IMG/VR virus record: IMGVR_UViG_2541047759_000001
Reading direction: 5' to 3' (one strand)
Length of the DNA stretch: 64,000 bases
DNA from: a virus
Lineage: Duplodnaviria > Heunggongvirae > Uroviricota > Caudoviricetes
In this document: positions 14,990 through 47,327 of the stretch, piece after piece
How the letters are laid out: the number at the start of each line of letters is the position of its first letter
Position numbering within the stretch: position 1 is the stretch's first letter
Notes under the pieces: model-generated
What the model was told of the DNA's origin: nothing
The model's database searches: none
The model's input: the letters and a program-made list of their open reading frames with translations, nothing else
Program-made: the position numbers and the translations under genes

Positions 14990-15249
14990 TTAGTTTCCTT
15001 GTTTATGTCTTGCTGGTGATGTTCTGAAAAGTATAAATGATATTTTTGAATGTAAACCATAGAGCAGAATTATTTTTCTGATGTTGTTTATTGTTTATTT
15101 AAATGCAGGGTGGTTTATATCTCGTCTTGTAGTTTATCCATGCATATCTGCTTGATGATGAGGTTTTTATTTAAGGTATGGTTTTGTGTTTTTTCTGTAT
15201 TACATGTCAGGTATTTTAAAGAATTATTTTTCAGATGGTGGAAAGAACC

Positions 15250-17211
15250 ATGGCATTTAAACACTATGATGTTGTCAGGGCGGCATCGCCGTCAGACCTT
15301 GCGAAACGACTGACACAAAAACTGAAGGAGGGGTGGCAGCCATTTGGCAGTCCGGTGGCCATCACGCCTTATACCCTGATGCAGGCCATTGCGGCGGAAG
15401 GTGATGTCACCACACCTGTGGTGGTGAAGCCGTCGGATGGAGAAGGCGCAGTTATCAGCACCACCAGCAACCCGGAGTATTACTTTGTTGTTGCCCTGGC
15501 CGGGCAGTCAAACGGTATGGCGTATGGTGAAGGGCTTCCGCTGCCGGAGACATATGACCGTCCGGACCCGCGTATTAAACAGCTGGCGCGTCGCAGCACT
15601 GTCACGCCGGGTGGTGCGTTCTGTAACTACAATGACATTATTCCTGCGGACCACTGCCTGCATGATGTTCAGGATTTGAGTAAGTTTTCACACCCGAAAG
15701 CCAGTGCAGCTCAGTATGGATGCGTGGGGCAGGGATTACATATCGCGAAGAAATTGTTGCCGTTTATTCCGGCGAATGCCGGTATTCTTCTGGTTCCGTG
15801 CTGCCGTGGTGGTTCTGCATTTTTGGCGGGCGATGAAGGTACCTTCAGCGAATCCACCGGCGCAAGCGAGACCTCGGCACGCTGGGGTGTAGATAAGCCA
15901 CTGTACAAGGACCTGCTTACCCGTACTCAGGCCGCACTGAAGGCCAACCCTAAAAATATTCTGCTTGCAGTGGTCTGGATGCAGGGCGAGTTTGATTTGA
16001 AACAGGGTGCATACGCCACCCAGCCGGGGCTGTTTGATTCCATGGTGGAAAAATATCGTTCTGACCTGTCGGAATTCGGAGGTCAGTGTCTCGGGGGCTC
16101 TCCGTCATCGGTTCCCTGGATTTGTGGCGACACGACCTACTACTGGAAGCAGACTTATTCTTCGCAATACGATGCGGTGTATGGTGCATACAAGACGAAA
16201 TCCGCAAAAAAAATCTTCTTTGTGCCGTTTATGACGGATGAAAACGGGCGAAATGTGGGTACCAACGAGCCGTCAGAAGATCCGGATGTTGCGGATATTG
16301 GGTATTACGGAGCCGGTGGTCGAACGGACGCCAAAACCTGGACGACGGCTGACCGTAAAACGCATTTTGGATCATGGGCACGTCGTGGGATTATTTCCGA
16401 CCGTCTGGCAACGGCGATTCTTGTGCATGCCGGGAGAAACGCTGAATTCATTACCGGAAAACAGCCTGATACGGTGAAGCCCACCGGACCTTCCGGTGAA
16501 GGTACGGAGAGAGAGCCGGAAGCCCCGGTCAGTAACCGAACCCTGATGAGTCTGCTGGCGTCCGGCGAAGACCTGGCATCACAGGGCTGGCGCTATTATC
16601 ACAAACCGGCGAGCGGAGACAATGTTAACAAAAACATTGCTGAAGCGGTGGTCAGTGATGCGGGGGCTACGGGAGGTAAGGCCCTGCAACTGAATAAACC
16701 GGAAAACCACATCTGGTTTCTGGAGCATGATGCAGCCGGACAGGGAGTGGAGTTACTGAAGAAGGGGGGACGTGTGAGCGTACGGTTTAAGTTGCCGGGT
16801 TCACTGGTGCCGAATCAGTTTGCCCTGGGCATTTACTGGCAGTTGTCGTCCCTGCCGGAGGGAGTGACGCTGGCAGAGGAAGGCAACGACATGCTGATGT
16901 CCTTCTTTCTGCAGACGGATGCGACGAACCTGAACGCGATGCACCACAAGAAGCCGAATGCGAAGCTGGAAACGTTCGGGGTCTTTGATAACGGATGGCA
17001 CACACTGGCTTTTGAGTTTGCCGGAAACAACAGCATTCAGGTGACGCCGGTACTGGATGAGAAACGGGGGACGCCGTTCACACTGGTGAAATCTCCGGCA
17101 TCAGGGGCGGCGGACAAACTGCAACTGACAGGCATATCAAAGGCGGCGACATATACGCTGCTGATTGACAGTGTGAAGGTGGAAGTGAACAACGCGGACA
17201 TCGCGGCATGA
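15250..17211 (+). CDS. Phage NanS-p-like protein: N-terminal DUF1737 plus SGNH-type esterase domain
   Basis: 654 aa; N-terminus 'MAFKHYDVVRAASPSDLAKRL...EGWQPFGSP' as in Stx-phage NanS-p esterases. Confidence 0.75.
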   Translation: MAFKHYDVVRAASPSDLAKRLTQKLKEGWQPFGSPVAITPYTLMQAIAAEGDVTTPVVVKPSDGEGAVISTTSNPEYYFVVALAGQSNGMAYGEGLPLPETYDRPDPRIKQLARRSTVTPGGAFCNYNDIIPADHCLHDVQDLSKFSHPKASAAQYGCVGQGLHIAKKLLPFIPANAGILLVPCCRGGSAFLAGDEGTFSESTGASETSARWGVDKPLYKDLLTRTQAALKANPKNILLAVVWMQGEFDLKQGAYATQPGLFDSMVEKYRSDLSEFGGQCLGGSPSSVPWICGDTTYYWKQTYSSQYDAVYGAYKTKSAKKIFFVPFMTDENGRNVGTNEPSEDPDVADIGYYGAGGRTDAKTWTTADRKTHFGSWARRGIISDRLATAILVHAGRNAEFITGKQPDTVKPTGPSGEGTEREPEAPVSNRTLMSLLASGEDLASQGWRYYHKPASGDNVNKNIAEAVVSDAGATGGKALQLNKPENHIWFLEHDAAGQGVELLKKGGRVSVRFKLPGSLVPNQFALGIYWQLSSLPEGVTLAEEGNDMLMSFFLQTDATNLNAMHHKKPNAKLETFGVFDNGWHTLAFEFAGNNSIQVTPVLDEKRGTPFTLVKSPASGAADKLQLTGISKAATYTLLIDSVKVEVNNADIAA

Positions 17212-42255: not shown

Positions 42256-42406
42256 CAACAGACGCCGATTTATCTTCTGTAAATATTGTTATGATACGCA
42301 GGTTCATCCGCCTTATGGGGTGAACTGCGTTTGAGGAAACGTAAAGTTACACTGTCCTGAAGCCCGTGGCGTCACTGCTGCGGGCTTTTTTTATTGGTGG
42401 AAAAGT

Positions 42407-44470
42407 ATGACAGTAAAAATTTCTGGCGTGCTTAAAGATGGCACAGGAAAACCAGTACAGAACTGCACCATTGTGCTGAAGGCCAGACGGACCAGCAGCA
42501 CGGTGGTGGTGAACACGGTGGCCTCTGAAAATCCGGATGAAGCCGGGCGTTACAGCATGGATGTTGAGTATGGCCAGTACAGCGTCACCCTGCTGGTTGA
42601 AGATTTTCCGCCTTCACATGCCGGGACCATTACCGTCTATGAAGGTTCCAGACCAGGTACGCTGAATGATTTTCTCGGCGCCATGACGGAAGATGATGTC
42701 ATGCCGGAGGCACTGCGCCGTTTTGAGCTGATGGTGAATGAAGTGGCACGTCATGCCGGAGCATCATCACAGAGCGCAGCGGCAGCAAAGAAATCCGAAA
42801 CGGCAGCGGCATCATCGAAGAACGCGGCGAAAACCTCAGAAACGAATGCAGCTAACAGCGCACAGGCGGCAGCGGCCTCGCAGACTGCATCGGCAAACTC
42901 CGCGACAGCAGCCAAAAAATCAGAAACCAGCGCGAAAAATAGCGAGACAGCCACAAAGGCCAGCGAAAAAAACGCAAAATCCAGCCAGACGGCAGCGAAA
43001 ACCAGTGAGACGAATGCCAAAGACAGTGAAGCCAACGCAAAGGTGAGCGAAACAGCGGCGGCGAACTCGGCGAAAGCATCGGCAGCAAGCCAGACGGCAG
43101 CAAAAGCAAGTGAAGATGCTGCCAGAGAATACGCAAACCAGACAGCAGAGCCGTACAGATATGTTTTACAGCCGCTGCCGGATGTGTGGATACCCTTTAA
43201 TGATTCGCTGGATATGATTACGGGCTATTCTCCGGGTTATAAAAAAGTGAAGATTGGTGATAATGTGGTTCAGGTTGCCAGTGATAAACAGGTTAATTTC
43301 AGTCGCGCATCAACGGCAACATATATCAACAAATCTGGCGAACTGAAAACGGCGGAAATTAATGAGCCACGATTTGAGTGTGATGGCCTGCTTATTGAGG
43401 GGCAAAGAACGAACTTCTTCCCGAACAGTACAGACCCTTCGAAGTGGAATAAGTCAACTTCACTGGACGTTACAGAAACAGGCACAGATAGTTTCGGGTT
43501 TAATTATGGCCGGTTTGTCGTACAGGATTCGATTGTTGGTACAAGTAAAGCGCATACCATTATCGGACTGTATTCGAGTACCGGAGGGGTTGATACTTCA
43601 GGGGACGAAAAGCATGTAACTATATCCTGTCGGGTAAAAAGTGAAGTTGATAATATCGCCGTTCGTATTTTATTTGAACATTATGATGGGGAGGTAAGGA
43701 CATCAATAGGAGCAGCAAACCTGAACCTTACCACCCGCATAATTAGCAAGACAGGTCAGACAAGCCGTGTTACAGCAAGGTCTGTTAAGGATGATGCAAC
43801 TGGCTGGATATTTTTTGAGGCTACATTAAAAGCAGATACAACAGAAAATACGGTTGGTGGTTTTGTCCAGTATTCTCCGGATACAGGGCAGATGGTTGCA
43901 TCAGGGGATTATCTCGATGTAACCACTCCACAGATTGAGGCTGGTACAGGCGCATCATCTTTTATTGTTACGGGGACGGCACCGGTAACGCGGGCAAGCG
44001 ATATGGTTACAGTTCCGATTAAGAATAATCTTTATAATCTTCCTTTTACGGTTCTTTGTGAGGTACATAAGAACTGGTATAAAACGCCAAATGCAGCACC
44101 GCGTGTTTTTGACACATACCGGCATCAGGCAGATGCGGGGATCGTAATGGGGTTTGGTTCATCAGGTGGGTACGACGGTTTTCCGTATTGTGATATAGGT
44201 GGTTCAGACCGACGAATAAATGAAAATGCCGGGCTGGAAAAAATGCTTATTGGTATGCGGGTAAAGTCCGAACGGTCCACATGTGTAGTCAGTAACGGTA
44301 AGTTAAGCAGCGAAACTAAAACCAAATGGGAATATATCCGGAGTACAGCAACCATTCGCATTGGTGGACAAACTACAGCAGGATTACGCCATTTATTTGG
44401 GCATGTGAGGAATTTTCGTCTCTGGCATAAAGAGCTAACAGATGCGCAGCTTGGGGAGGTTGTGGAGTGA
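42407..44470 (+). CDS. stf: Side tail fiber protein with Ala/Ser-rich repeat region
   Basis: N-terminus 'MTVKISGVLKDGTGKPVQNCTI' matches lambda Stf; 'AAKTSETNA' repeats at about 42760-43140. Confidence 0.85.
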   Translation: MTVKISGVLKDGTGKPVQNCTIVLKARRTSSTVVVNTVASENPDEAGRYSMDVEYGQYSVTLLVEDFPPSHAGTITVYEGSRPGTLNDFLGAMTEDDVMPEALRRFELMVNEVARHAGASSQSAAAAKKSETAAASSKNAAKTSETNAANSAQAAAASQTASANSATAAKKSETSAKNSETATKASEKNAKSSQTAAKTSETNAKDSEANAKVSETAAANSAKASAASQTAAKASEDAAREYANQTAEPYRYVLQPLPDVWIPFNDSLDMITGYSPGYKKVKIGDNVVQVASDKQVNFSRASTATYINKSGELKTAEINEPRFECDGLLIEGQRTNFFPNSTDPSKWNKSTSLDVTETGTDSFGFNYGRFVVQDSIVGTSKAHTIIGLYSSTGGVDTSGDEKHVTISCRVKSEVDNIAVRILFEHYDGEVRTSIGAANLNLTTRIISKTGQTSRVTARSVKDDATGWIFFEATLKADTTENTVGGFVQYSPDTGQMVASGDYLDVTTPQIEAGTGASSFIVTGTAPVTRASDMVTVPIKNNLYNLPFTVLCEVHKNWYKTPNAAPRVFDTYRHQADAGIVMGFGSSGGYDGFPYCDIGGSDRRINENAGLEKMLIGMRVKSERSTCVVSNGKLSSETKTKWEYIRSTATIRIGGQTTAGLRHLFGHVRNFRLWHKELTDAQLGEVVE

Positions 44471-44745
44471 GAGATTTCACGTTGCGTTTCAGTGATAAAG
44501 CAGATTTCAGGGCATTTCTCAGGAAACTTAACTGGGAAGAGGACGAAGAGCTGCAGAATGCCGTTCTGGTTGATGAGATTGGTTTTACGTTCAGTGAGTC
44601 AGGTGTTTCTGCTGACGGGGAGCCTGAATACACGCGAGACGAAGGGTACTTTGTTAATATTCGTCTTCTTGACGATGGCTTTGATGAATCCGTGTTCCGT
44701 GAGTGGGTGGTTACACCAGAGCGCCCGCTAAGGGAGTGGTTTTAA
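44467..44745 (+). CDS. Hypothetical protein downstream of the tail fiber
   Basis: GGGGAGG RBS, GTG start overlapping the stf stop; 92 aa, acidic. Confidence 0.5.
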   Translation: MRDFTLRFSDKADFRAFLRKLNWEEDEELQNAVLVDEIGFTFSESGVSADGEPEYTRDEGYFVNIRLLDDGFDESVFREWVVTPERPLREWF

Positions 44746-44754
44746 GGGGAGCAG

Positions 44755-45048
44755 ATGGATATCACGTCGATACTTCATGCGCTTTGTGCCGTGGCGGTGC
44801 AGGTACTGGCTGGTCTTTTTACCGGAAACTGGGCTTACGGGGCGATAGCCGGTTGTACGTTCTTCATTGCGCGTGAACACACCCAGGCAGAATATCGCTG
44901 GATTGAAATGTTCGGGCATGGCAAGCGGATTAACATGCCGTGGTGGGGCGGTTTTGATCCACGTGCATGGGATGTGGCAAGCCTGATGGATTTTGCTGTG
45001 CCGGTGGTGGCGTGTCTGCTGGTCTGGCTGTTGGTTAATCGTGGGTGA
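44755..45048 (+). CDS. Small membrane protein
   Basis: GGGGAG RBS; hydrophobic segments at both ends; 97 aa. Confidence 0.5.
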   Translation: MDITSILHALCAVAVQVLAGLFTGNWAYGAIAGCTFFIAREHTQAEYRWIEMFGHGKRINMPWWGGFDPRAWDVASLMDFAVPVVACLLVWLLVNRG

Positions 45049-45059
45049 AAAAGGTGAGC

Positions 45060-45190
45060 AGTATATGCAACGAAGGAGGAAACATCATTGCTGGCGGCAT
45101 GGAAGGCATGCAGGGTGTTGCTGAACCGTGTTGATACATCAACTGCACCTGATATTGAGTGGCCTACGAACCCTGTCAGGGAGTAATCAT
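45060..45190 (+). pseudogene. Remnant of a tail fiber assembly (tfa) gene 3' end
   Basis: Encodes '...[31 protein letters not shown]' with no start codon; near-duplicate of the 45966-46232 C-terminus. Confidence 0.5.
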
Positions 45191-45240
45191 TGGGATTATG
45201 CCGCAGCACGTCTTAAGCAAGAACGTGCTGCGGTTGGATG

Positions 45241-45909
45241 CTATTTTTTCCCTGAAGCGGAAAACATTACTACAGTACCTTGAACCTTGGTTTTAACATT
45301 CTCGAAATGCTCTGAGAGTATATGTGTTAAGCCTTCTTCGGAATCTTTTGTGTTTGAAAAGATGCCTTTCTGATTGTAAATGCGCATCAGTTTTTGACCG
45401 AAGCTATTGTGCACAACTCCATCGCCAAGAATTGTGGCTCCGTATAGAGTTCCATCGTCAGTTAAGGCCTGCGCCGCATTGCGTATTACACAGCTTTTTG
45501 TAGATATATTTCCAGGCAGGCAGTGAAGAAGGTAAAACATGGAAATGGAATCAAATTGACCATGTAACGCCGCGGGATAAGGTTCAAAAACATCATGGCT
45601 AATTTTATGTTTAATTTTTGATTCCCCTGCCCTTGTAGATGCCGCGTTCAGGCTAGCTTCGTTCAAATCCATTAAAGATATCAGACTACTCTCAGGTACG
45701 TGAGTAAGGTAAAACCCAGTTCCAACACCAATATCCAGATGGTTGTTACCTAAATGTTCCAGAAAGTGTGGAAGAAGGTGTTCCTTTGTAGGACATCCCC
45801 ATGCAAGCCGATTTGATACTCCCAAAACCCACCAGTCATAAAGCTTTAGGGTAAGTGGTGTGTAAATTTTAGCCCCATCATCTGTGTTTTTTTTCATTAA
45901 TTTCACCAT
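45241..45909 (-). CDS. Class I SAM-dependent methyltransferase, low-GC cargo
   Basis: 'LDIGVGTG' motif I; low-GC gene between duplicated tfa 3' ends; start may be the ATG at 45897. Confidence 0.7.
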   Translation of the reverse strand: MVKLMKKNTDDGAKIYTPLTLKLYDWWVLGVSNRLAWGCPTKEHLLPHFLEHLGNNHLDIGVGTGFYLTHVPESSLISLMDLNEASLNAASTRAGESKIKHKISHDVFEPYPAALHGQFDSISMFYLLHCLPGNISTKSCVIRNAAQALTDDGTLYGATILGDGVVHNSFGQKLMRIYNQKGIFSNTKDSEEGLTHILSEHFENVKTKVQGTVVMFSASGKK

Positions 45910-45965
45910 GTTATAGTTTTATTTATGAATTAAATCAATTATGGCGATGAATTACAAGGGGTTAA

Positions 45966-46232
45966 ATGCTGCCGCAGCATAGCGATATTGAAATAGCCTG
46001 GTATGCTTCGATACAGCAGGAGCCGAATGGCTGGAAGACCGTCACCACACAGTTCTACATCCAGGAATTCAGTGAGTATATTGCGCCACTGCAGGATGCT
46101 GTAGATCTGGAAATCGCAACGGAGGAAGAAAGATCGTTGCTGGAGGCATGGAATAAATATCGGGTATTGTTGAATCGTGTTGATACATCAACTGCACCTG
46201 ATATTGAGTGGCCGACTTCACCTGCAGAGTAA
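45966..46232 (+). CDS. Tail fiber assembly protein C-terminal fragment
   Basis: 88 aa ending '...[30 protein letters not shown]', a conserved Tfa C-terminal region; N-terminal half absent. Confidence 0.5.
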
Positions 46233-46463
46233 TCAACGGCGCAGGGATGATATTTTGTGCTTGAAGTGCCTCCCCGACCATTCAGATAGTCGGGGAGGGG
46301 TATTGGGATTATACGCAATCAGTTTTAGTTAAAGACCGAAGCTCTCGAAAAATCTTTCTCCAAAACCAGAATGGAATTGATTGATTTTGATAGGATCTAT
46401 AACGTCGTTACCTTAAACGGCAAAACCACTCAAAAACAAACTTAATGCATTGAATATAAAGGA

Positions 46464-47327
46464 TTAATCATCTAATTCGCTCACCTTCTTATTCAGCAGA
46501 CGAGAAGCGCGCCAGTAAACCAGCAACATCAGGCCCATTACGATAGTCAGCGTAATGCTGGTGGCTGCACCAAACGGCCAGTCACGAATATTGAGGAACT
46601 GTACCTTGATGACGTTACCGATCAGCAGGTTTTTCGCACCGCCCATCAGGTCGGACACATAGAACAGGCCCATCGCTGGCAGCATCACCAGCAGACATCC
46701 GGCAATAATTCCCGGCATCGTTAGTGGGATAATGATGCGGATAAAGGTCTGCAACTTGCTGGCACCGAGATCGCGCGCCGCCTCAAGCAACGGCTTATCC
46801 AGTTTTTCGATACTGGAGTACAGCGGCATCACCATAAACGGCAGCAGAATGTAAACCAGACCGATAATCACCGCACTAGGCGTGAACATGATGCGAATTG
46901 GTGTATCGATAACGCCCAGCCAGAGCAAAAACTCGTTGAGATAGCCTTTGGTGCTGAGGAAAATTTTCAGCCCGTAAATACGAATCAATGAGTTGGTCCA
47001 GAACGGAACAATCAGCAGAAACAGCAGCAGCGGACGCACCTTGTGTGGCAGCTTCGCCAGAAACCAGGCAAAAGGATAGCCCAGCACCAGGCTGGCGAGG
47101 GTGGCGATCAGCGCCATATTCAGCGAGTGCAATAGCACTTCAAAATAGAGCGGATCGAGCAGACGCGTGTAGTTATCCAGCGTAAAGACCATTTTGACGA
47201 AACTGGCGTCGTCGCGGGTCAAAAAGCTGGTGCCAATGATCATCAGGTTGGGCAGAAAGACAAACAACACAAGCCAACCGACAATAGTGACAATCACTAC
47301 ATTCTGGAACTTACTTGTGTTCTTCAT
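46464..47327 (-). CDS. potB: Spermidine/putrescine ABC transporter permease PotB
   Basis: Recognised E. coli PotB sequence; followed by potA in operon order. Confidence 0.9.

Follow-up and report, generated by a model that had tools for sequence, protein, structure and literature searches.

A DLP12-like tfa-ybcY-tfaX locus with an intact methyltransferase reading frame at the right end of a lambdoid prophage

The closest described counterpart of the locus considered here belongs to DLP12, a cryptic prophage of Escherichia coli K-12, where the tail fibre assembly gene tfaD (b0561), the pseudogene ybcY (b0562) and tfaX (b0563) are annotated in a row and where, as in uropathogenic E. coli (UPEC) genomes, ybcY adjoins ompT (PMC6854850). 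In the literature ybcY is named in lists only, namely a promoter/H-NS table, a mutant without phenotype and the ompT context, and we found no functional study. More distant parallels are the b region of lambda, with ea47 between tfa and attP; the exchangeable effector loci (EELs) at the very end of lambda-like prophage genomes in enterohaemorrhagic E. coli (EHEC; PMC8112680); and the invertible segments of Mu (G/Gin), P1 (C/Cin) and e14 (P/Pin). Our subject is a 64,000-nucleotide stretch of DNA given as the tailed-phage record IMGVR_UViG_2541047759_000001, called the window below, in which a minus-strand gene for a class I S-adenosylmethionine (SAM)-dependent methyltransferase (45241-45909) lies between two incomplete pieces of tfa. 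We consider it probable that the locus is the standard DLP12-type accessory module tfa-ybcY-tfaX, here with an intact ybcY, and this judgement covers the explanation as a whole: the module, the methyltransferase gene as a moron, the two tfa pieces as relics, and exchange at shared linkers. The moron concept is said to go back to Juhala, Hendrix and colleagues in 2000. The arrangement is already known, is very common in E. coli and is an ordinary structure.

Collinearity between the window and K-12 extends over 45067-46212, and within this interval the methyltransferase gene has 99.1% nucleotide identity to ybcY; the genes follow one another in the same order and orientation, and the spacer carrying the promoter differs at only 1-2 positions. 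The gene further matches PHROG 2132 (E 7.9e-157) and has the same tfa/tfaX flanks as in K-12, which places it in the YbcY family. The two loci differ in four respects. In K-12, ybcY has a 2-nt deletion at a run of eight A residues after the start codon, whereas the window copy is intact; a full-length tfaD stands where the window has a 40-codon tfa stump behind another tail-fibre module; tfaX ends at 61 aa, while in the window it retains the tfa core to a natural stop; and the prophage lies at the argU/ompT site instead of potB. The identical protein is present in RefSeq as WP_000239881.1, ‘class I SAM-dependent methyltransferase’, annotated in many genomes, and strain KE51 shows two ‘incomplete tail fiber assembly protein’ pseudogenes around it. 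Of 5426 complete E. coli genomes, 3838 (71%) contain a 777-bp core (45189-45965) with at least 95% identity, in ~4900 copies altogether; the left tfa/methyltransferase junction was found in 3066 genomes and the right junction in 3445. Fourteen phage records carry the cassette as well, among them the isolated plaque-forming phages ev243 and 2G7b, in which tail-fibre genes (stf) stand on one side of it and alpha/beta hydrolase, ompT and int on the other. Because phages of this type carry the cassette next to hydrolase-ompT-int, the position of ybcY beside ompT in DLP12 and UPEC finds an explanation, and the K-12 ompT region looks like the fossil b region of an ompT-carrying lambdoid phage. The interval between the methyltransferase-tfaX block and int holds a hydrolase of ~494 aa and ompT in both ev243 (L003 7267-9891; L numbers denote extracted loci) and 2G7b (L004 7260-9884), and the same two genes are seen in the extract from strain C7 (L017 4256-6766).

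The features of the locus, in window coordinates, are as follows.
42407-44470, plus strand: stf, the side tail fibre gene, with a lambda-like N-terminus and a different C-terminal domain, which starts the tail-fibre module.
44467-45048, plus strand: two small open reading frames (ORFs) of the tail-fibre module with full-length matches to PHROG 1361 and PHROG 1443.
44467-44745, plus strand: the 92-aa ORF of this pair (orf92).
44755-45048, plus strand: the 97-aa ORF of this pair (orf97), a putative membrane protein.
45067-45186, plus strand: left tfa 3' remnant of ~40 codons and a stop, lacking a start codon (pseudogene), with repeat copy 1.
45200-45234, no strand assigned: GC-rich hairpin flanked by the stop codons of tfa and the methyltransferase, terminator-like and a recurrent cassette boundary.
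45241-45909, minus strand: ybcY-type class I SAM-dependent methyltransferase, annotated at 222 aa and assigned by Pfam, PHROG 2132 and identity to K-12 ybcY.
45910-45965, minus strand: divergent promoter spacer with candidate sigma-70 promoters for the methyltransferase.
45966-46232, plus strand: tfaX-like chimeric ORF of 88 codons, of which codons 1-31 are non-tfa and 46059-46232 is a tfa 3' fragment with repeat copy 2.
46233-46463, no strand assigned: right end of the prophage, the attR-side spacer, with a second hairpin at 46269-46298 detected by folding; it abuts the potB 3' end.

An earlier note on this DNA had drawn attention to a 38-bp direct repeat encoding the Tfa C-terminus on either side of the gene. 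The repeat is real, and both copies translate in frame to the Tfa C-terminus; the second was placed correctly at 46176-46213, and the first, put at 45126-45163, lies one nucleotide further on, at 45127-45164 (offset 1049). This is the longest exact direct repeat, and it is nested in a 101-nt repeat of 85% identity (45067-45167 and 46116-46216). By our own arithmetic, done by hand and with no tool, the chance expectation for one 38-mer repeat in 64 kb is ~1e-14, so the repeat reflects homology and not chance. The surrounding 2.1-kb stretch is 100% identical in more than ten independently assembled genomes, and at least 80% of this query is covered in 233 genomes; an assembly artefact is thereby excluded, and with it the concern that the repeats might disappear on resequencing. 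A conserved C-terminal domain of Tfa has been described (PMC9608196), and the 38-mer codes for part of it. Since the 38-mer recurs without change in the tfa gene of lambda itself (orf-194) and in 35 phage records, its exact duplication speaks for conservation and not for an insertion event; ev243 and 2G7b have a single exact copy, their right copy diverging at 46190. Neither piece is a full-length Tfa with both the variable N-terminal fibre-binding domain and the conserved C-terminal one. Caudo_TAP of Pfam is matched in its C-terminal part only, at positions 95-130 of 131 by the left copy and 75-131 of 131 by the right, and the Prokaryotic Genome Annotation Pipeline (PGAP) labels both pieces incomplete, naming the left one ‘tail fiber assembly protein, incomplete’. 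Nor does the locus have the make-up of a transposable element or integron cassette: no transposase adjoins the cassette, the repeat scan gave no terminal inverted repeats, and the flanking repeats are 85%-identical coding remnants whose 38-mer exists already in lambda tfa.

The two pieces appear to have separate origins, and their sequence contexts mark them as relics of two different tail-fibre modules. On the left, the remnant-orf97 junction is identical in phage 21, Tritos and PhiR49_2, which lack the methyltransferase. Since this junction is common to methyltransferase-free phages, the left stump is the scar of a tail-fibre module replacement and part of that module; it would have been left as an stf-tfa module gave way to an stf-orf92-orf97 module. 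The orf92-orf97 pair follows stf in the same three phages and in ev243. On the right, the fragment accompanies the methyltransferase in every left context, be it full-length tfaD (K-12), pinR-ydfK-ynaM (C7) or Mn-catalase/ferritin-like genes (strain 124), and in C7 and strain 124 homology to the window begins only at 45195-45201, inside the hairpin. The right ORF is chimeric: homology to tfaD and lambda tfa begins at 46059, the 93 nt before the joint at 46058/46059 (45966-46058) are not tfa, and the first 31 codons of the ORF match the N-terminus of another phage family, PHROG 3893. PHROG 2341 covers the entire right ORF, PHROG 3893 its N-terminal part only. We picture the right piece as an older stump that would have been fused to foreign sequence and would now move with the methyltransferase. 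The tfaX-like ORF is probably a decaying remnant, as the end of its frame varies between K-12 (61 aa), ev243 (a frameshifted extension) and the window (the natural stop). The same differences in frame end led us to reject tfaX as a needed mini-chaperone, as did phage 21, where the same fibre module occurs although tfaX is missing and the tfa stump lacks the core. The Rfam family IS009 (RF02111), a candidate small RNA, scores 112.5 bits at 45989-46192 on the plus strand, below its gathering score of 117, and it matches the left remnant as well (45046-45143, plus strand, 47 bits); the family seems to have been derived from fragments of tfa 3' ends.

What follows the tail-fibre module varies from phage to phage. 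The same stf-orf92-orf97-tfa remnant series is followed by dinI in PhiR49_2, by pinR in Tritos and by sitABCD in phage 21, so that replacement between otherwise collinear phages, as expected of a moron, is seen directly, and the methyltransferase ORF is deleted in phage Ayreon. The comparison with related prophages lacking the insert that the earlier note had recommended did reveal other cargo in the slot, and it also showed that the left tfa junction occurs in phages that lack the methyltransferase. Slot contents, reverse-oriented and very different between relatives, are further illustrated by the metal transporter genes sitDCBA in phage 21 (L022 4370-7819), dinI in PhiR49_2 (L020 3549-3797), pinR with a regulator in Tritos (L021 4522-5695) and a block of Mn-catalase, ferritin-like and general stress protein genes in strain 124 (L016 337-2550). 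Homology of the left copy to the window ends at ~45123 in phage 21, at 45164 in Tritos and at 45240 in PhiR49_2, where dinI follows; the right copy diverges at ~46140 in K-12, at 46190 in ev243, 2G7b, C7 and 124, and at 46213 in MS6198. Beyond the right copy comes attR/potB, hydrolase-ompT, IS66 or ompW, depending on the genome. In MS6198 (L015 3928-4097) the right fragment keeps the natural tfa end and the hairpin, and the flanking direct repeat, ~170 nt at 87%, is longer than that of the window. This pattern is classic lambdoid mosaicism.

On its left side the cassette ends with the stop codon of the methyltransferase gene (45240/45241), beside the hairpin at 45200-45234, which folds at -28.6 kcal/mol (z -4.35) on the plus strand and at -25.4 kcal/mol (z -3.9) on the minus strand. 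A pattern scan for intrinsic terminators returned none, and the hairpins of the locus were detected by folding only. Lambda has related copies after tfa and after ea47, flanking ea47 (L023 3073-3110 and 4662-4703), and Tritos has one beyond its pinR cargo (L021 6169-6218). The conserved sequence is GC-rich, GCCGCAG...CTGCGG, and recurs at cargo boundaries; the hairpin has the look of a linker or terminator common to lambdoid b regions and serving the exchange of cassettes there. Our proposal is that the tfa 3' core and the adjoining hairpin would serve as shared homology for repeated swaps, with fibre modules exchanged on one side and cargo on the other, and the positions of the mosaic joints point to homologous recombination at tfa as the route. 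A sequence expected from recombination across the 38-bp repeat was searched for in the 5426 genomes, and no deleted allele was found among the top-ranked places, all of which were two-piece matches with the insert still inside. Phage Ayreon, considered as an empty site, was ruled out, as the last 12 methyltransferase codons (TVVMFSASGKK and the stop) and part of the upstream spacer remain; it is a ~663-bp deletion derivative and not a pre-insertion site.

Set beside the other described systems, the locus resembles the lambda b region in having a reverse-oriented accessory gene just past tfa, bounded by hairpins, and it shares with morons, b regions and EELs a content that varies between otherwise similar phages. 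It differs in carrying a methyltransferase in place of ea47 or a type III secretion effector, and in having a second tfa stump past the cargo. Like the invertible segments, it has duplicated tail-fibre/tfa gene ends towards the late operon's right end, and the Pin recombinase occupies the slot in Tritos and strain C7. In contrast to those segments, the repeats here are direct and not inverted, no invertase lies in the slot of this prophage, and a methyltransferase rather than alternative fibre ends stands between the repeats.

The methyltransferase ORF runs uninterrupted through 222 codons between the repeat copies. Its true start is likely M5 at 45897, which would give 218 aa; the alignment to PHROG 2132 (E 8e-157) pairs residues 5-222 with profile positions 1-218, and that family and most homologues are 218 aa long. 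Four Pfam families score above their gathering thresholds (Methyltransf_12 with 37.6 bits for a cutoff of 30, and also Methyltransf_23, _25 and _11), and the G+C fraction is 0.408 compared with 0.510 for the window, so the low-GC minus-strand methyltransferase of the earlier note holds good. The deviating base composition is what one expects of a moron, though low GC is not unique to the cassette because the neighbouring 3' half of stf is itself at just 0.42-0.46. A remnant with disrupted motifs, which would have spoken against that note, is not what we see. Motif I (HLDIGVGTGFY) and LMDLN are present, with D55, G57, G59, G61 and D77 invariant in 38 homologues; the conserved motifs of the family are HLDIGVGTG, LMDLN, HDVF and FDSxSMFYLLHCLPG, and the family-invariant residues YDWWVL, W33, C35, LLHCLPG (HC) and YNxKGIFSN are intact. 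Six of the eight extracted loci have an intact gene, and the most divergent intact copy, that of A36, differs from the window by 8 synonymous and 2 non-synonymous changes. At the protein level, the full-length cluster holds 6589 member sequences, and the truncated clusters 445 and 30. The A8 run after the start codon (45887-45894, minus-strand ATGAAAAAAAAC) is the site of the break in both pseudogenised copies examined, with the 2-nt deletion in K-12 (L001) and a 1-nt deletion in Trh52 (L019); it may be a slippage hot spot or an on/off site.

Motif I together with the acidic residue of strand 2, and a seven-stranded beta-sheet with alternating helices, identify the protein as a class I enzyme. 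The AlphaFold2 model is a single domain of 218 aa with a predicted local distance difference test (pLDDT) score of 91. Its structural neighbours include the bacterial phosphatidylethanolamine N-methyltransferase PmtA (8ys9), juvenile hormone acid methyltransferase (JHAMT, 7ec0), Plasmodium phosphoethanolamine methyltransferase (3uj7), Methanosarcina mazei MM_2633 (3dtn), BelI, RebM, DhpI and Coq5, with template modelling (TM) scores of 0.55-0.68, identities of 11-21% and no clear winner; UbiG (4kdr) falls within the same range of identity and does not stand out either. JHAMT and UbiG are also the weak matches at the sequence level. The protein and its distant relatives fall into no NCBIfam family and no specific Pfam family: NCBIfam gave sub-threshold matches only (CpaM, RquA, BioC, UbiE and NodS) for the protein and 10 distant relatives, and Pfam gave generic methyltransferase domains only, longer fusion proteins included. 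The profile search thus classified the enzyme as far as generic class I families and PHROG 2132, short of a curated specific family, and the statement of the earlier note that the substrate is not evident from sequence was borne out by NCBIfam, Pfam and the gene neighbourhoods alike. In Salmonella, Enterobacter and Yersinia the chromosome carries homologues of 56-70% identity as monocistronic genes outside phage contexts, with unrelated neighbours and no conserved operon around them. The family is distinct and of moderate size, amounting to 1749 clusters at 50% identity (E of 1e-3 or below) in a representative library. Since the homologues are stand-alone chromosomal genes in non-phage neighbourhoods, the phage gene looks like captured host metabolism, that is, a gene of enterobacterial chromosomal type which a phage may have acquired.

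For expression, a consensus scan gave two candidate sigma-70 promoters in the spacer, TTAACC-16-CATAAT (45965-45938) and TTGATT-17-TATAAC (45938-45910), and the former would yield a 34-nt leader with a GGTGA Shine-Dalgarno sequence. The near-identical K-12 ybcY/tfaX spacer is listed as a constitutive RpoD-holoenzyme promoter site, bound by RpoD holoenzyme in vitro, in which TTGATT-17-TATAAC is assigned to ybcY and which carries an H-NS mark (PMC3946193). We suppose that the methyltransferase gene is a moron: a single gene opposite to the late operon, with a divergent promoter spacer upstream and a strong hairpin past its stop. It would most likely be transcribed alone in the lysogen, as a monocistronic and H-NS-modulated unit, with the hairpin perhaps insulating the tail genes. 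By what is established for lambda, lytic growth may bring a further step, in which late transcripts under Q antitermination would be expected to pass the hairpin and to cross the gene in antisense. The enzyme is probably a cytoplasmic SAM-dependent O-, N-, S- or C-methyltransferase acting on a small molecule or lipid and not on DNA, a small molecule or lipid being our best guess at the substrate class, and its role would be lysogenic conversion to the benefit of the host rather than a virion function. Several points weigh against this picture. Promoter-like matches are no commoner in the sequence than in shuffled sequence; the hairpin has no T-run on the methyltransferase strand, so that termination of its transcript is not established; we infer expression in the lysogen of this strain from the sequence; and recombination at tfa is read from joint positions and not from observed events. 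The gene is, moreover, dispensable, being frameshifted in K-12 and Trh52, deleted in Ayreon and absent from ~29% of genomes, and it could be a nearly neutral hitchhiker.

Other explanations of the locus have to be weighed with these points in mind. The picture in the earlier note was of cargo recombined in through tfa homology and dropped between duplicated ends, and an entry of the cassette in one step by tfa recombination, creating the flanking 3' duplication, would indeed agree with the direct repeats on both sides of the gene, with mosaic joints of relatives that fall within both tfa copies and with the longer flanking repeat of MS6198, where the right copy keeps the tfa end and the hairpin. 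Yet the copies reach just 85% identity once the core, which lambda tfa has unchanged, is set aside, the left junction with orf97 occurs in methyltransferase-free phages, the 93-nt non-tfa fusion of the right fragment is tied to the methyltransferase whatever lies to the left, C7 and 124 carry the cassette with no adjoining left tfa, and the left edge of the cassette lies outside tfa. We regard entry in one step as unlikely; of the earlier picture, accessory cargo in a variable slot with joints inside both tfa copies is retained, and insertion between duplicated ends is given up. Extremely improbable, to our mind, is the idea that an earlier prophage at potB/potC left the right tfa fragment and the methyltransferase behind in the chromosome, so that, with prophages in tandem or nested, neither would belong to the present one. 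The fragment does adjoin potB at the extreme end of the prophage, and integration of prophages into prophages at the ends of lambda-like phages has been described (PMC8112680), but the packaged, plaque-forming ev243 and 2G7b hold an identical methyltransferase-tfaX block internally, between stf and int, and ev243 is 98% identical to the window over 42380-46190, from stf through the cassette.

The remaining alternatives concern the gene itself. A functionless, decaying cassette could stay common through linkage alone, both with the ancient DLP12/ompT region and with lambdoid phages that are successful, and this is consistent with the frameshifts in K-12 and Trh52 and the loss of the ORF in Ayreon, with the clear decay of tfaX, with the H-NS mark on the K-12 ybcY/tfaX spacer (PMC3946193) and with a K-12 ybcY mutant that behaved as wild type in its growth response to Hha overexpression (PMC2408971). 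It fits poorly with an ORF that is intact in most copies and keeps all its SAM-binding motifs and family-invariant residues, with the excess of synonymous over non-synonymous changes, and with a family maintained as intact genes at 56-70% identity across Enterobacterales, in 1749 clusters; we therefore hold a mere passenger to be improbable, though worth keeping in mind. A DNA or RNA methylase serving phage biology, through anti-restriction, epigenetic marking or counter-defence, appears very doubtful. The 222-aa sequence has neither a (D/N/S)PP(Y/F/W) motif nor the PCQ/ENV motifs of C5-methylases and matches no DNA-methylase family of Pfam, the 218-aa protein has no target-recognition domain, small-molecule or lipid methyltransferases make up the great bulk of its top structural neighbours, and its homologues stand alone on chromosomes, away from phage or restriction-modification contexts. 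The sole PADLOC match was an insignificant one to mad2 (E 0.0033, 14 bits), with no matches for the neighbouring small ORFs, and a defence role was set aside. We thus favour the DLP12-type module with its moron, relics and linkers. Going beyond that module, one may imagine a true lysogenic-conversion factor, controlled by H-NS and spread by phages, which methylates an envelope lipid (phosphatidylethanolamine, in the manner of PmtA) or a toxic small molecule or host metabolite; this stronger version we consider a distinctly long shot. If it were correct, methylation by YbcY would alter membrane properties, tolerance of drugs or toxins, or phage susceptibility, and it would give a first function to a family present in ~70% of E. 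coli genomes and across Enterobacterales.

The structure itself matters little, as it is the K-12 tfaD-ybcY-tfaX arrangement and the identical protein is already in RefSeq. It does clearly illustrate the re-assortment of lambdoid cargo, with the tfa 3' core and the GC hairpin as short, conserved linkers and with dinI, pinR, sitABCD, stress genes or the methyltransferase in the slot. The family is widespread and mostly intact, and K-12, in which ybcY is a pseudogene, is not the strain for finding its phenotype.

As to the surroundings, the window from 1 to ~46400 is apparently a complete lambdoid prophage in E. coli DNA, with genes for a lambda-type integrase (1-1119), exonuclease VIII, an S24 repressor, terminase, portal, tape measure, J, lom and stf. 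The product of stf, named ‘prophage tail fiber N-terminal domain-containing protein’ by PGAP, matches Pfam phage_tail_N (E 1e-66) and has the NCBIfam GTA_spike_fiber domain at residues 329-530. At the right end, potB begins at 46464, and the position of the spacer before it is taken in ev243 and 2G7b by alpha/beta hydrolase, ompT and int. The prophage sits directly after the 3' end of potB (46464-47327, minus strand), parting potAB from the usual place of potC; the window starts exactly at the integrase gene (minus strand), which puts the left attachment site and potC outside the view. A 45-aa ORF called by PGAP at 45159-45296 (plus strand) spans the hairpin and the methyltransferase 3' end; it is named ‘hypothetical protein’ or ‘nucleocapsid protein’ depending on the genome, the latter also in K-12 derivatives, and is almost certainly a spurious call. 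Elsewhere in the prophage, a 658-aa protein encoded at 15235-17211 (plus strand) combines DUF1737, a SASA domain of the sialate O-acetylesterase type and DUF6645, and by this domain content it looks like a NanS-p-like esterase, possibly a further accessory gene.

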